From Callorhinchus milii (Eukaryota), in the NCBI RefSeq assembly GCF_018977255.1, contig NW_024704742.1, positions 131,132,001 through 131,196,000 on the forward strand: a DNA stretch of 64,000 nucleotides. Direction: 5' to 3'. Position numbers and translations under genes: made by a program. Positions 3,619 to 33,860 of the stretch are shown one piece after another; the stretch's first letter is position 1, and each line of letters begins with the position of its first letter. Below the pieces are notes generated by a model. It did not search any database. It saw nothing but the letters and a program-made list of their open reading frames with translations, and had not been told where the DNA came from.

Positions 3619-3717
3619 AAAACAAAAACAGAGAGAGCTGGGAAAAGTCAGCAGGTCAGGCGGCATCTATGGAAAAAGGAAAGTGAGTCAACGTTTCGGG
3701 TCCACGACCCTTCGTCA
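3619..3717 (-). mobile_element. Penelope-like terminal element with hammerhead motif lacking C3
   Basis: Near-identical to 26379-26514; minus strand reads tTGACGAAGGGTCGTGGACCCGAAACGTTGACT. Confidence 0.75.
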
Positions 3718-12269: not shown

Positions 12270-12560
12270 GCCCTAGCTCTGGCAGCCATCCCTATCTATG
12301 AAATGGAGTGAGTGCCAATGCAGATAAACATGATCATTGCCTAGGGTGAGAAGCCACTGACAGGAGCTAAGCAGGTGAGCCCCAGTCTTGTCCACACTGT
12401 GCTGTAAAACATTAGAGCTCATCCAGTAGTCAATGTCTGATAGCCTATCAATCAGAGCAGCACTAGACCTGGAATCAAACAACAACAAATTATATTTATG
12501 TAGTGCTTTTCATGTTGGGAGGCGTGGAATCGAAAGTAGAGGCAGGAAGAAAAACAACTC
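12270..12560 (-). mobile_element. Old L2 ORF2 fragment interrupted by a short L2 tail
   Basis: Translation LSDIDYWMSSNVLQHSVDKT aligns with SWMSANFLQLNVDK of the 13491 copy. Confidence 0.75.
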
Positions 12561-13490
12561 GCAGGCGAACTTCAGTATCTCTGTGTGTCAGTGTATCTGT
12601 ATCTCAGTGTGTCAGTATCTCAGTGTCAGTGTGTCAGTATCTCAGTGTGTCTGTAGGTCAGTGTTTCAGTATCTCAGTGTGTCTGTATGTCAGTGCGTCT
12701 GTGTGTCAGTATCTGTGTGTCAGTACCTCAGTGTGTCAGTACATCACTGCGTCAGTGTATCAGTATTGCAGTGTGTCAGTATCTCAGTGTGTCTGTGTGT
12801 CAGTATCTGTGTGTCAGTATCTCAGTGTATCAGTATTGCTGTGTGTCAGTGTGTCAGGATAGCAGTGTGTCAGTATGTCAGTGTGTCAGTGTCTCAGTCT
12901 GTCAGTTGTCAGAATCGAACAACAACAAATTGTATTTATATAGCGCCTTTCAGGTTGGGAGGATGTGCAATCGAAGATAGAGGCTGGGAGAAAACCAACT
13001 CACAGGCGAACCTCAGTGTGTGTCAGTCTGTCTGTATCTCAGTGTGTCTGTAGGTCAGTGTGTCAGTATCTCAGTGTGTCAGTATCTCAGTGTGTCTGTA
13101 GATCAGTGTGTCAGTATCTCAGTGTGTCAGTATCGCAGTGTGTCAGTATCGCAGTGTGTGCGTATTTCAGTATCTTAGTGTGACTGTATGTCAGTATATC
13201 AGTGTGTCAATATCTCACTTTGTCATCATCTGTGTGTCTGTATATCAGTGTGGCAGTATCTCAGTGTGTCAGTATCTCATTGCGTATGTGTGTCAGTGCG
13301 TCAGTATCTCAGCATGTCTGTATGTCAGTGTGTCAACATTTCAGTGTGTATGTGTGTCAGTATCTCAGTGTGTCAGTATCTCAGTGTGCCTGTGTGTCAG
13401 TAGCTCAGTGTGTCAATATCTCAGTGTATCAATATCTCAGTGTGTTTGTATGTCAGTGTGTCAGTGTGTCAATATCTCAGTGTGTCTGTA

Positions 13491-14441
13491 CACGGGGTAC
13501 ATTTCCACATGTACGCAGATGACACCCAACTCTATTTTTCCACCTCTCTTTGCGACTTTCAGTCCCCTGATATTCTGTCAGCCTGCCTCAGGAGCTGGAT
13601 GAGCGCAAACTTCCTTCAGCTGAACGTTGATAAGATGGAAGCCATACTCTTTGGCTCTCGTCAACGTCTAAAATCTCACGGCTCTCACCTCCTCCACCTA
13701 CCCGACCTCCCCATAAAACTCTCCAAACCCGTACCCAACCTAGGCATCAGGTTTGACCCCCAATTATCCTTTCTCGCACATGACCGGCCCTTCACTAGCA
13801 CCGCTTTCTTCCACCTCCGACACATCGCCCGTCTCCGCCAATACCTCTCCCCAAAGACTGCTGAAACCCTGGTCCATGCCTTTGTCACCTCTCGGCTGGA
13901 TTACTCTAATGCTCTCCTCGCCGGTCTCCCATCCACTACCATCCATAAAATCCAAATCATTCAAAACTCTGCCGCCCGCATTCTCACCCGCACAAGACTC
14001 CGCTCCCCGATCACCCCAGTCCTTGCCAGACTGCAGTGGCTGCCTGTTCCAGAGAGGATCGATTTCAAGATCCTCATCCTTGTATTCAAGTCCCTACACT
14101 CCTCTGCACCCCCCTCCCCACCCCCACCTCTCTGACCCCCTCACTCTCCTCAAAACAGTACCCGTTGCCTTCGTTCCTCCAGGTCTGGCCTCCTCCACTC
14201 CATCCTCGGTGGCTGTGCCTTCAGCCACTATGCCCCGAGGCTCTGGAACTGCCTTCCTCACCACCTTCGTCTCGCTCCCTCCCTTCCTATTTTCAGGTCT
14301 CTGCTGAAGACCTTTCTTTTCGACCGCACTTTTGGTCACCTTCCTCCCCCTCCCCCGGCTCGGTCCCAGGATCCGTTACTGTAAAGCACTCTGAGACGTC
14401 ATCTGGTGTGGAGGACGTTATATAAATCCAAGTTGTTGTTG
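13491..14441 (+). mobile_element. 5'-truncated L2 LINE: RT C-terminal part, 3' UTR, (TTG)n tail
   Basis: HMYADDTQLY catalytic motif, AETLVHAFVTSRLDYSNALL, LQWLPVPERIDFKIL; tail aaatccaagttgttgttg; possible TSD tgtctgt. Confidence 0.96.
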
Positions 14442-15102
14442 TCTGTGTGTCAGTATCTCAGTGTATCGATATCTCAATGTGTCTGTGTGTCAGTGTGTCT
14501 GTGCGTCAATACCTCAGTGTGTCAGTATCCAGTGTGTCAGTACCTCAGTGTGTCAGTATCTCAGTGTATCCTTGTGTCTGTATGTGTGAATGTCAGTGTG
14601 TCAATATCCCTGTGTGTCAGTATCTCAGTGTTTCTGTATGTTAGTGTATCTGTGTGTCAGTATGTCAATATCTCAGTGTGTCTGTGTATCAGTAGTTCAG
14701 TCTGCCAGTATCTCATTGTGTCTGTATGTCAGTATCTCAGTTTGTCTGTATCTCAGTGTATCCTTGTGTCTGTATGTGTGTATGTCAGTGTGTCAATATC
14801 CCTGTGTGACAGTATCTCGGTGTTTCTGCATATCAGTGTATCTATGTGTCAGTATGTCAATATCTCAGTGCGTCTGTGTGTGTATCTGTGTGTCAGTATC
14901 TCAGTGTATCGATATCTCAGTGCGTCTGTGTATCAGTGTGTCTGTGTGTCAATACCTCAGTGTGTCTGTGTGTCAGTAGTTCAGTCTGTCAGTATCTCAG
15001 TGTGTCAATGTGACAGTATCTCAGTGAGTCAGTATCTCAGTGTGTCAATAGTTCAATGTGTCTGTGTGTCAGAGTGACAGTATCTCAGTGAGTCAGTATC
15101 TC

Positions 15103-15347
15103 CTAGGCTCTGGAACTCTATCCCCCAGTGCCTTCGCCCTTTCCTCCTTCAAGGCCGGTCTCAAGACCTTTCTCTTTGACCGTGCCTTCAGCTCCCCTCT
15201 CGACTCTCTACCTCCTCCTCGCTGCCTCCCTTCCCTCCCCTCACCCTGACCATTTCCCCCCTGCTCGGGTCCTGACCCAACTGTACAGCGCCTTGAGACG
15301 TCCTCCCGACGTGAAAGGCGCTCTATAAATAGAATCTTGTTGTTGTT
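15103..15347 (+). mobile_element. L2 3' end with TSD gtatctc
   Basis: FKAGLKTFLF translation, acgtcctcccgacgt hairpin, TTG tail; gtatctc at 15096-15102 and 15348-15354. Confidence 0.92.
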
Positions 15348-16467
15348 GTATCTCAGTGTGTTAGCAGTTCAGTATGTCAGTGTGTCAGCATCTCAGTGTG
15401 TCAATATCTCAGTGTGCCTGTATGTTAGTGTGTCAATATCTCAGTGTGCCTGTATGTTAGTGTGTCAATATCTCAGTGTGCCTGTATGTCAGTGTATCAG
15501 TATCTCAGTGTGTCAATATCTCAGTGTGTCAGTATCTCAGTGTGTCTGTATCTCAGTGTGTCTGTATCTCAGTGTGTCAGTATCTCAGTGTGTCAATATC
15601 TCAGTGTGTCAATATCTCAGTGTGTCAGTATCTCAGTGTGTCTGTATCTCAGTGTGTCAATATATCAGTGTGTCAATATCTCAGTGTGTCAGTATGTCAG
15701 TGTGTCAATATCTCAGTGTGTCAATATCTCAGTGTGTCAGTATGTCAGTGTGTCAATATCTCAGTGTGTCAGTATGTCAGTGTGTCAATATCTCAGTGTG
15801 TCAGTATGTCAGTGTGTCAATATCTCAGTGTGTCAGTATGTCAGTGTGTCAATATCTCAGTGTGTCAATATCTCAGTGTGTCAGTATATCAGTGTGTCAG
15901 TATCTCAGTGTGTCAATATCTCAGTGTGTCAGTATGTCAGTGTGTCAGTATCTCAGTGTGCCTGTATGTCAGTGTATCAGTATCTCAGTGTGTCAATATC
16001 TCAGTGTGTCAGTATGTCAGTGTGTCAGTATCTCAGTGTGCCTGTATCTCAGTGTGTCAATATCTCAGTGTGTCAGTGTGTCAATATCTCAGTGTGTCAG
16101 TATCTCAGTGTGTCTGTATCTCAGTGTGTCAGTATCTTAGTGTGTCAGTACCTCCATGTGTCAGTATTTCAGTTTGTCAGTATCACAGTATGTCAGTGTG
16201 TCAATAGCTCAGTGTGTCTGTATCTTGGTGTATCAGTATTTCATCAAATCATGTCAGAGTATCAGTGATTCAGTAAATCAACGTGTCCATATTACAATCA
16301 GTCAGCAATTCCTAAACAAACCTCATAAAGTAATGATTTCTGACAAAGGATTAGTGCATTGTTCCTCCTTTTTATATTCTCAACTGACAGAAACAATGCC
16401 GTGAGGATCAGTATTTCTATCAGGAGTTGTGCAAATGTAGCCTGACTAACCCACACGCTCTTGCCTG

Positions 16468-24935: not shown

Positions 24936-25869
24936 AATGAATATCATAGACTGACATGCGGTATTTCATAATGATATTTGTTAATAAGGGATTCTGTTAG
25001 AATTCTCATTAAATTGCAGGACACTGCAGTGGCAGTGACAACTGTAGCAATTCCTTCCGGGCATAGATTGTGTCCGAGCAGCGTTCCCCGCGGGTCAGGA
25101 GACTTATGTTTGGGTACCAGAGTGAGTCGCCAATTTGTGAGATTTCTCATTAAGAAATCTGTCAAGAAATAGTGCAAATTAGACTCAATAATTTGATAGC
25201 TGTAGACATTCTGTGCAGGGTCAATAAGCCATTTACACATAAACTGTATATGCATGCGGTTGACTTTACCTGAGAGGTGAGAAAAAAGAAAAGATGAGCT
25301 TTCTCCAGTAGTGATACTGACATTAGCCGGTGTGTGTATGTGTGTTTGTGTGCATCTTTTAACAAGGATATATGAGGGCTGACACCAAGACTCGCTTGAG
25401 CTGCACGGAAAGAGATTGGAATGAAGTGCCAACCTTCACCAGGAGTGTATTGTGCTTCTCAGACCTTCTCTTCAGTGGAATTGGATGTCCAAACCATCGT
25501 TTCGTCAAAAAATAAACACGGCCTGCCTCGAAGGAAGTGACTTGTTTTTCTCTCCAGAGTTTGGGCTCAAATTGACAGCGGGAATCTAAAATACGATATG
25601 CTCAAATGGATCTGTAAATAGCGACTCAGAGTTTCAACAGCAGAGTCTAAGAGTAACCGGACATGTGTCACACCGACCAGTTGAAACTCTGCTCCTGTAG
25701 ACTGCACCCAAGTTGACTATTAGAATTATACTTCCCTGCATCAAACATATTTCTCCAGACTCCCGCTTCTGAGTCAAATGGTTGTGGGTTTCAATCCCCA
25801 TAATTTGAACTCATGGTCTAGGCTGACATTGCAGCATTGGTGCAGAATCTTTCACTTCAGGAGAATGTC

Positions 25870-26260
25870 CCAGAACGCTTTGCTGAATTTACTGTAAATT
25901 GCAGTGAATGTCTATTTCGTAGATAGACAAAGTATAGGCAATGTCCGAAAAACAGCCATGGAGCGAGTGACCAATTTTATTTGGGGGATTGTTGGCCAGG
26001 ACACCGGGAGAGAGAAACTCCCATCCCTTTTCCAACAGCTCCATGGGATCTTTAACGTCCACCTGAACAGACACAAGCAACTTTAGTTTAACATCTCAAC
26101 AACTACAACAGCAGGGTAGAGCCCCAGAGCACTTGAAAGTACACTGTCTCCTCTGCAGTACACCACCTCCAACAACAACACCTCCCTCAGCCCTTTATTG
26201 TAGTGTCAGCATAGACTATGTGAGTTCGACGTCCTGAGGTGGAACTCAAATCTAGGTTCA
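25870..26260 (-). mobile_element. SINE-A
   Basis: ccatgggatctttaacgtccacctgaacag Deu core. Confidence 0.8.
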
Positions 26261-26378
26261 ATGACATCCAAGACCCAGCATAATAATCATGATAATAATA
26301 ATCCTTGCATTTAATATAGGGCCTTATCACATCTTCGAGATGCCTCAAAGCGCTTCACAGAATATACTGTGAAGTGAA

Positions 26379-26514
26379 CAAAACACAAAATACTGCAGAT
26401 GCTGGAATCTGAAACAAAAACAGAGAGAACTGGGAAAACTCAGCAGGTCAGGCAGCATCTATGGAGAAAGGAAAGTGAGTCAACGTTTCGGGTCCACGAC
26501 CCTTCGTCAGAACT
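26379..26514 (-). mobile_element. Short Penelope-like (PLE) terminal element with 13-bp TSD
   Basis: Flanked by actgt(g/a)aagtgaa at 26366-26378 and 26512-26524; paralogues at 3619, 28594, 33464. Confidence 0.8.
26478..26514 (-). ncRNA. Minimal type I hammerhead ribozyme motif
   Basis: AGUU-CUGACGA-A-GGGUC(GUG)GACCC-GAAA-C-GUU-GACU: both core boxes, 5-bp stem II, 4-bp stem I, palindromic loopless stem III. Confidence 0.7.
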
Positions 26515-28339
26515 GTAAAGTGAATTGACCTAATATTTTGTGGGAGAAATGCGGCAACCAATTGCGCACAGCAGTGTCCCACAAACAGTTTAGTGACCAA
26601 TTTATTATTATTATCTTTTTTGGAAGGAATTATTACCACCGGAAGTGTGATCCGCCAACCGACTACCAACTGGATTCCTACTTACTCCTAGGTAAACAGA
26701 GGCTTGTGGAGTAAGAAAACTTGCCCAACATTTTGCCCTCCTGGGAACAGAACCCAGATCTCTCGCTTGCGAGGCGAGTTCTCTAACCACTGAGCTACAG
26801 GTCTCCACTTCTGATAATAATTGTTACCAGAAGCGGCTTTGCTTACAATTATTCTTGAGACGACTTGAGACGTCCTCCTGACGTGAAAGGCACTATACAA
26901 ATGTAATTTTGTATTGTATTCTCACAAAAATTGTCGGGCGGAGGGTGGGAGGTAGGGTTATGTGTGAAGGTATAAATAATTAGGGATTATTGACAGGGAT
27001 AGAAATTCTGCGGAAGTGACAACATCACTGGTTCTAATTATCACGTTGAATAATAAAATATAATCCTTGCATTTGATATAGCACCTTATCATACTGTGGA
27101 AACATCTCAAAGCATTTCACAGAATGTATTGTAAAGTGAATTGATTGTGTGTTTTGTTGGCAAATGTTACATTTTCAACACCCGCCACCCATAGGCAGAT
27201 TTTGCAAGCTCACCATTTTGAAATTTACATAGGTTTACGTAGACAGTACAGTGTGGAAACAGACCATTCAGCCCAACCAGTCCGAGCCAGTGTTTATAGA
27301 GGTTTCTCACGACCCACACCATACTCCCTCCCATAGCCTTCTATTCTCATCTCCCTCAATGAGTGTTGTGAGGAATTTGACTACCGGTGCACCTTTCTCT
27401 CTGCTGCTCCCATGGGAATTTCAATGGTGTTGCAATTTTACACAGAGGTAATGGTATCCCTAGCAGCTACCTGAAGTATAAACTTCCACTCTTTGCCGAA
27501 AGCGCATTTGTCTCGTCTCATCTTTGTGGCCCCAACTTTAGCTGGTGCAGTGCATCACGAGAATATATGGTTAATATTTGGCTCTAGTGCAGGAATAGAT
27601 TCTCGTCTTTCTTGACAACTTTAGTCGAAAATTATGTTCAAATAACTTTTAAATCCCTTTGATGCATCATTTTTTTTTGGCAGCCGACTTAGGATGTATT
27701 TAAAGAGCACAATAAATCAAATCCTCTCTTCGTTCTGTATAACATACGAAACCATTGAAATTGAGGAGTAATTGCTTTCCAAATGCATTTCAAATGCTGA
27801 GGTTCCAGGGATCCGAACAAAACATAAAGAACATTGTCTGCTTCTTGTAGAATTGCAATAGTTTTAAGAACAGAAGAAAGCACGGCACGAGAAAAGGACA
27901 TTTGTTCCATCGAGCTTGTTCCTTTCACAGAACATCTAAATGTACTCTTTAATGAAGCCCACCCTGTCCCATCTACCTTTTGGGGATAAACGTGACAAGG
28001 TGCCATAACAATTGCAAGGATTATTATTCATATTTTTATTATTAAAATAAACTTTTGTTACAGATAACGCTGAACTATGGAGATGGTTAAGAAAAACATT
28101 CATTCATTGAATTCTGGGCTGCTTCGTTCTCTGGAGAGGATAGTAATATTAATCATAATAATCCATGCATTTGATATGGCGCCTTATCACTTTGTCTCAA
28201 AACGCTTTGCAGGATATACTGTGAAGTGGGTTGACTGTATTTTGTGGGGGAAACGGATGTAATTGATGCGGAGTCTGGCATGGTCGAAAATTCAGGCCTG
28301 AATATGTCCTGAATAGGTCCTGTCAGTGCAGAAGAGAGC

Positions 28340-28975
28340 AATAACATTGATCCCAGTGTTAGAGCTATGGAATCGTTGGACAAGCTACGACTCTTTATTC
28401 TTGAAAAGAGAAGTCTAAGACGGAACTTTACAGATGCTAAATGGGATAGAAAATGTAAACCAAGAACAATACATTCAGATAAACCAAAGCAGAGGGATAA
28501 GGGAATAAGAGAATCTCATGTTAATGTTATGAAGGACAATTTCAGGATAGACACCAGGAAGTATTTCTTTACACAAAGGTTAATTAACATCTGGTATAAA
28601 CACAGAAGTCACTGAGAACATGCAGCAGGTCAAGCAGCATCCATGGAGAGAGGAAAATGAGTTAATGTTTCAGATCTGTGCCTTTTGTTAATTAACATCT
28701 GATGATTCTCACGACAGTAGATCAAGAGGATATACGTTTATATAGGTTTAGAATTGCAAAGGCCAATTGCAGGACAGAAACCAAAAAGTTTTTATTTGCT
28801 CAGAGGGTAATCAATGACTGGAACAGGTTATCAAGAAAGGTGGTTGAAGCCAGGACACTGGACTCATTTAAAGAGCAGCTTGACACTGTGATCAGAGGCT
28901 GGTAGGATGGGTGTTCTGGCGAGATGAGATCAGATGGGCCGAAGGGCTTTCTTCACCTGAACCTCTTGTGATTCA
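28340..28975 (+). mobile_element. Two decayed CR1 3' fragments separated by a PLE-type insertion
   Basis: LFILEKRSLR, FRIDTRKYFFTQRLINIW and FLFAQRVINDWNRLSRKVVEA translations. Confidence 0.85.
28594..28686 (-). mobile_element. Degenerate PLE-type element with 15-bp direct flanks
   Basis: cagcaggtcaagcagcatccatggagagagg; gttaattaacatctg at 28579-28593 and 28687-28701. Confidence 0.75.
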
Positions 28976-33463: not shown

Positions 33464-33860
33464 TGATGAGAGGTCGTTGACCTAAAACGTTAATGTGCTT
33501 TCCTCTCTCCACTTTCCTCTCTCCTTTCTCCACACAGCGAGTTTTTCGGATCTGGACTGCATTGCCTGAAAGGGTGGGGAAGCCAAATTCAATAACAACT
33601 TTTAAGAGAGAAGTAGATAACTATTTGGGGAGGGTATGTTTACAGAGCTATGGGGAGAGCGTGGGGGAGTGGGATTGAATTGGATAGCTCTTTTTAAAAG
33701 GGCCGGCACAGACACAATGGGCCGAATGGCCTCCTTCTATGCTATATAATTCTATGATTCTATGATTCATAGATACTGCCTGACCTGGTGAGTGTTCCCA
33801 GCACTTCTGTTTATATTTCAGATTTCCAGTATCTGCAGTATGTCATCTTTTGTGTATTGG
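33464..33860 (+). mobile_element. PLE-type element with decayed hammerhead, split by CR1 insertion
   Basis: tgatgagaggtcgttgacctaaaacgttaa; resumes with catagatactgcctgacctg after the CR1. Confidence 0.75.
33525..33768 (+). mobile_element. CR1 3' end
   Basis: FSTQRVFRIWTALPERV translation; (ATTCTATG)n tail. Confidence 0.92.

Follow-up and report, generated by a model that had tools for sequence, protein, structure and literature searches.

In the 64-kb stretch of DNA analysed here, which we call the window, a short unit on the minus strand (26379–26515) has been inserted into a tRNA-headed SINE. Our analysis indicates that this unit is likely to be the 3' end-piece of a 5'-truncated Penelope-like element (PLE), comprising a hammerhead motif and a 33-nt tail, that was inserted into the SINE from uncut RNA and is probably inactive alone. 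Its membership of the PLEs is likely, on the strength of the RNA motif and the anatomy of the insertion.

The hammerhead motif and its insertion site

Read on the minus strand, positions 26514–26478 agree with the published minimal-hammerhead consensus of PLEs (PMC4209133, Fig. S3), and both our reading of the letters and a pattern descriptor point to a minimal type I hammerhead motif at 26478–26514. The 5' strand of helix I, AGUU (26514–26511), is followed by the core box CUGACGA (26510–26504), an extra A before helix II (26503), and helix II itself, in which GGGUC (26502–26498) faces GACCC (26494–26490) across a GUG loop. The second core box, GAAA (26489–26486), then leads through C-G-U-U (26485–26482) to the predicted cut and to the 3' strand of helix I, GACU (26481–26478). 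Helix II has 5 bp and a 3-nt loop, while helix I has 4 bp, with a U.G wobble as its core-adjacent pair. Helix III is replaced by the loopless palindrome ACGU (26486–26483), and a nested dimer of 22 pairs can be drawn through a shared helix of two such palindromes. The core elements of the PLE minimal hammerhead, CUGANGA, GAAA and a UH cut site, are all found in the focal motif. The extras described as typical of the class (PMC4209133) are a base between positions 9 and 10.1, a G10.1–C11.1 pair and a palindromic 15.2–16.2; they appear here as A26503, G26502–C26490 and ACGU, respectively.

A descriptor built from the published consensus had a single match on the two strands of the 64-kb window, at the focal site, and matched none of 300 dinucleotide shuffles. 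Rfam hammerhead models expect a helix III, and no hammerhead family was matched, either across the whole window at the gathering threshold or over 26300–26620 at E ≤ 10. The original prediction had described the same minus-strand motif with both core boxes, a stem II of 5 bp, a stem I of 4 bp and ACGU in the place of stem III, all of which was confirmed on the letters and, for the motif, by the shuffles. Its cut after GUU is rightly placed between 26482 and 26481, with cleavage itself a prediction. The search with hammerhead models that it had proposed was successful for the consensus-based descriptor but not for Rfam. A scan for the same pattern returned no matches in metagenome contigs and none in viral contigs. 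Three matches in prokaryote genomes were rejected as isolated chance matches of 21–22 bases in DNA of 66–68% GC.

The unit is flanked by the two copies of a 13-bp target-site duplication, at 26366–26378 and 26512–26524. These repeats differ at one base, and it is the left copy that bears the mismatch relative to most copies of the host SINE. The stretch between them (26379–26511) is 133 bp long, or 137 bp with a 4-nt microhomology included, as the first ~4 bases of the right repeat overlap the element. We deduce this junction microhomology of ~4 nt from the right-repeat bases that also belong to helix I, namely the three bases 26512–26514 of its 5' strand, together with contigs from other loci that align up to 26513–26515. 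In all, the SINE grew by 146 bases, of which the insert accounts for 133 and the duplication for 13. The expected ~135-bp unit between 13-bp direct repeats with one mismatch was thus borne out. The span first assigned to it, 26379..26524, was correct at its start but took in the right repeat at its end, whereas the insert proper ends at 26511.

The host had been taken for a SINE-B tail. The insertion does lie within a SINE, which is now refined to a whole tRNA-headed element on the minus strand (26277–26804), with its head at 26804–26733 and its end at ~26277, in the same orientation as the hammerhead. The host also carries a second insert of 65 bp, at ~26636–26700. Elsewhere in the window, 17 of the 23 matches to the flank pair are clean empty sites, with zero gap at exactly the insert position. 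Of the remaining six, three are offset by 2, −7 and −24 and three are cross-matches at 70–123 bases.

Copies of the family and their ends

The window contains four dispersed copies of the PLE-like unit, the focal one and three others, and a profile search of the window gave no further clear copy (next E 0.084). The second copy (3620–3717, minus strand) is 96% identical and has no tail. It stops inside the CUGA box, with C3 and the 5' strand of helix I missing, and no duplication was found around it. An older copy (28594–28686, minus strand), ~78% identical, also has no tail and has a damaged core; it is flanked by exact 15-bp repeats (28579–28593 and 28687–28701). The last copy, likewise older (33464–33853, plus strand), has the tail and is split by an insert of ~255 bp (33512–33767). 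Its G12 and C3 are lost, and it has A-U for G-C at 10.1–11.1 of helix II. This is the only double-sided helix II change seen among the four window copies, and covariation accordingly amounts to a single pair in one copy. The focal copy is the only one of the four with an intact core; the nearest other copy, 2.1 kb away, has lost its core, and the window holds no intact partner. Target-site duplications accompany two of the four copies (13 and 15 bp), and no adjacent duplication was found at the other two. Within the 15-bp duplication lies an AT-rich palindrome of 10 bp without mismatch, and the final 5 bases of the duplication are identical to element sequence at the boundary of the tail. The ~255-bp repeat that splits the fourth copy has a short tandem end.

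The tail of the focal copy is an optional 3' extension of 33 nt (26379–26411, minus strand), present in two of the four window copies. The copies fall into two 3'-end classes 33 nt apart, two copies in each, ending at the equivalents of 26379 and 26412. Between the tail-less copies, the one at 3620 ends exactly at the equivalent of 26412, and the one at 28594 at 26407–26412, depending on how its 5 shared bases are assigned. Measured from the predicted cut, the two 3' ends are at 70 and 103 nt. The 33-nt difference fits the optional tail of 30–40 bp described for PLEs (PMC8557442), which has been traced to the use of two internal sites at which reverse transcription can start (PMC11167929). In the anole element of the latter study, reverse transcription starts in a stem-loop, and we compute from that paper that one start site lies 85–92 nt from the cut. 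The body downstream of our hammerhead, together with the tail (26385–26463, minus strand), could form a long hairpin (z −2.23, with 7 of 200 shuffles as good).

Public sequencing data place the unit in a large family. Contigs from four of 24 runs (X1, X5, X6 and X7) aligned to 26330–26560 at 80% likeness, with 8,073 to 49,870 aligned contigs per run, SINE flanks counted in. These contigs, whose depth is not equal to copy number, include thousands of related pieces; the pieces inspected were the 32 longest, with ends that are biased toward the full unit. Runs X6 and X7 share a loose end at 26515 whose consensus is almost identical in the two (335 and 407 records, with an agreement of 0.41 and 0.50), which suggests that the family continues upstream of the hammerhead. 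These two runs come from organisms B and C, which carry other labels than the best-matching organism, and the loose end is not among the rows listed (24 of 1,098) for X1 and X5, the runs of the best-matching organism. The upstream motif does not occur in the window. Opposite-strand joints at 26504–26515 were seen in three of the four runs (X5, X6 and X7), as would be expected of inverted 5' partners of PLE insertions; the focal copy is without inversion.

At the five CpG positions of the motif that were listed, 9–25% of the depth is altered, and at the catalytic G12 12–16%. This suggests neutral decay after insertion, G12 included. The original prediction had offered the lack of preferential conservation of the core across genomic copies as one part of its ground for refutation. 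As inserted copies should decay neutrally, conservation of the core among them is unsuitable as such a test. On helix pairing, the contig data consist of single-site shares at the positions listed, a listing that leaves out 11 rows.

The description of the unit as a PLE terminal repeat is well supported by the motif consensus, the 33-nt tail, the duplications, the upstream continuation and the inverted junctions, but an ORF for RT/GIY-YIG could not be linked to it. No such ORF was found adjoining any of the four window copies, although 5'-truncated copies would lack one anyway. Previous work reported that 5' truncation yields very short PLE insertions, with a median of 128 bp (PMC9977147). The Pfam scan covered 73 of the 83 frames of at least 90 aa, the other 10 lying in a low-complexity block (12430–16268), and it yielded one weak RT match at 13404–14132 (RVT_1 E=0.0011, below the cut-off), 12 kb from the focal copy. 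There were two further sub-threshold matches, of which the EGF-like one sits in a SINE-like repeat. The region at 12570–16300 is a GT/CA-rich, low-complexity, satellite-like block broken by a LINE-like RT fragment and SINE tails. All three frames across the unit hold stops, save for a short frame from the ATG at 26459. A protein search with a 44-residue read-through of one of the three frames found no longer protein, which is weak evidence, and the window yielded no host exon. The terminal repeat is a possible starting point of PLE ORFs. The ATG-opened frame is 26 codons long (26459–26382, minus strand) and stays open across the tail as far as the insert's end.

Origin of the copy and competing explanations

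The likely history of the end-piece can be sketched from the work on the anole element (PMC11167929). A PLE RT/GIY-YIG protein would bind the RNA near the tail and nick AT-rich DNA, and reverse transcription from one of two internal sites ~33 nt apart would yield tailed or tail-less copies. Of this step, the two classes of 3' ends are what we observe in the window, and the enzyme is what we infer. Copying may then have come to a halt with ~135 nt made, at the hammerhead's 5' edge, and the product may have been joined via ~4 nt of microhomology; the observed traces of this step are the microhomology overlap and the 13-bp duplication. The focal copy spans the predicted cut, and none of the four copies begins at it, so the templates must have been uncut or re-ligated. 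In the anole study, cleavage needed protein, and insertion did not need cleavage (PMC11167929). In a tandem parent, by extension from PMC4209133, cleavage after GUU would require the ACGU palindromes of two hammerheads to pair into a shared helix III, and it would be slow and probably protein-aided.

One feature is not explained by random truncation. All four window copies stop within ~12 nt (26504–26515), at the 5' edge of the hammerhead, and the inversion joints in the contigs cluster there too, at 26513–26515. With n=4, this common stop is no more than a lead, which may point to a start or splice site beside the hammerhead or to a block to the reverse transcriptase. In the Penelope element of D. 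virilis, the 5' end of helix I is also where an intron terminates (PMC4209133), and the loose-end consensus of the present family, in its minus-strand reading, ends with CAG directly before the UU of helix I. We considered that short copies may stop at a fixed 5' edge, set by the start or splicing of the RNA or by a protein-bound hammerhead that blocks the RT. The family would then be a PLE-dependent mini-element of ~135 nt, in which the hammerhead acts as a copying boundary and not as a cutter. We regard this proposal as rather unlikely.

A more specific variant, to which we give a somewhat lower chance, holds that the unit is a non-autonomous mini-element, whose RNA of ~135 nt starts at the hammerhead 5' edge, be it a start site, a splice acceptor or a site of processing, and is mobilised in trans by a PLE protein, so that the short copies would be full-length. 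The shared ends, the inversion joints, the D. virilis intron and the CAG before helix I, a putative splice signal, are all consistent with it. However, the upstream continuation is common to two runs, the ends are staggered, with two or three copies lacking C3, and an internal promoter is not evident. Moreover, there are only four copies, and PLEs normally give rise to very short products of truncation (PMC9977147). The truncated PLE end-piece is thus preferred over a full-length short element.

The original prediction had also considered a retrozyme-like unit. A solitary monomer of a non-LTR retrozyme family, amplifying via circular RNA, is quite improbable here, although retrozymes derive from PLE terminal repeats, are present in the genome of one cartilaginous fish and can leave monomers dispersed (bioRxiv 10.64898/2026.07.22.740005). 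This reading fails because there is no tandem array in 25000–28000, and the window holds only the four dispersed copies. In addition, the hammerhead is minimal, with a 4-bp helix I and no loop 3, whereas the canonical form has a 6-bp helix I and a looped helix III (PMC7229834). The limits of the unit are set by the hammerhead's 5' edge at one end and the tail at the other, rather than by a repeat period, and there was no head-to-tail joint among 15 of the 258 contig joints.

In published tests, minimal hammerheads did not cleave as monomers and cleaved to a low degree as dimers (PMC4209133), and eight of nine frog dimers did not cleave (bioRxiv 10.64898/2026.07.22.740005). For the focal copy, nearest-neighbour energies, which ignore tertiary contacts in the core, predict that a lone copy prefers a fold pairing the core with the cut site, at −11.4 kcal/mol as against −8.8 kcal/mol for the active-like monomer, which makes up 0.6% of the ensemble. 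The predicted energy of the active dimer is −15.7 kcal/mol, compared to −22.8 kcal/mol for two misfolded monomers and −29.5 kcal/mol for the best dimer. The folding of the whole motif is no better than that of shuffles (z −0.58). On these models, the solo copy is probably inert.

It is hard to believe, then, that the focal copy functions at its locus, for example as a ribozyme under the Pol III promoter of the host SINE or by cutting a host transcript. Its core is intact, and it lies ~290 nt downstream of the SINE head, in the same orientation. Nevertheless, judged by the usual rules for promoters and terminators, this SINE has a B box that differs from that of the intact copy, and a T4 run comes ahead of the hammerhead, at 26719. 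The monomer is predicted to misfold, and the active dimer would be less stable than two misfolded monomers. Furthermore, a young copy, 96% identical to that at 3620, is expected to keep an intact core anyway. Finally, a chance resemblance to a hammerhead has next to no likelihood: the missing Rfam match and the ordinary folding score would suit it, but no shuffle matched the descriptor, and the family-specific consensus extras are all present.

Relation to known elements

The focal unit resembles the metazoan PLE minimal hammerheads (Cervera and De la Pena 2014, PMC4209133) in its CUGANGAH box, the G-C first pair of helix II, GAAA, the palindrome in place of helix III, the UH site and the short helix I, as well as in its dispersed solo copies. 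It differs from them in forming its own sequence family and in a helix II at the short end of the range, with 5 bp and a 3-nt loop. Among the entries inspected in Fig. S3 of that paper, there is no cartilaginous fish. In PAc, a Poseidon element from the green anole (Frangieh et al. 2024, PMC11167929), the hammerhead is likewise followed by two alternative tail-defining ends within ~100 nt, and insertion proceeds from uncut RNA into an AT-rich target. Unlike our unit, whose frames hold stops, PAc is full-length, with an ORF starting at helix II. The animal non-LTR retrozymes (PMC7229834; bioRxiv 10.64898/2026.07.22.740005) are also non-coding and PLE-related, with a type I hammerhead and possible monomers. 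Their defining feature, however, is the tandem array, to which PMC7229834 adds canonical hammerheads and circular RNAs, whereas the focal unit is solo and its motif minimal.

Our literature searches found no paper on this particular family; the supplements of bioRxiv 10.64898/2026.07.22.740005, which lay outside the searches, may hold it. The minimal-hammerhead class has been known since 2014, and the focal unit, which adds one sequence family to it, is as it stands of little importance. The role of hammerheads in PLEs is still open (PMC8557442, PMC11167929), and a very high-copy family provides a good natural record of the points at which copying starts and stops. Genome-wide copy ends could tell whether reverse transcription ever uses cut RNA, and whether it is the hammerhead that fixes the 5' boundary.

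The promoter upstream of a hammerhead in the same orientation recalls the SINE-like Sm-alpha elements of Schistosoma (PMC6765202). In contrast to Sm-alpha, the arrangement described here is a one-off nested insertion, and other copies of the host SINE are empty. A hammerhead SINE of the Sm-alpha type was rejected on the grounds that 17 of the 23 other flank-pair matches are empty and that no other SINE copy in the window has the motif. Rfam also gave tRNA-like matches at eight sites in the window, from 923 to 55166; those inspected in full belong to a single abundant SINE family, as the heads of ~320-bp units that end in ATT repeats.
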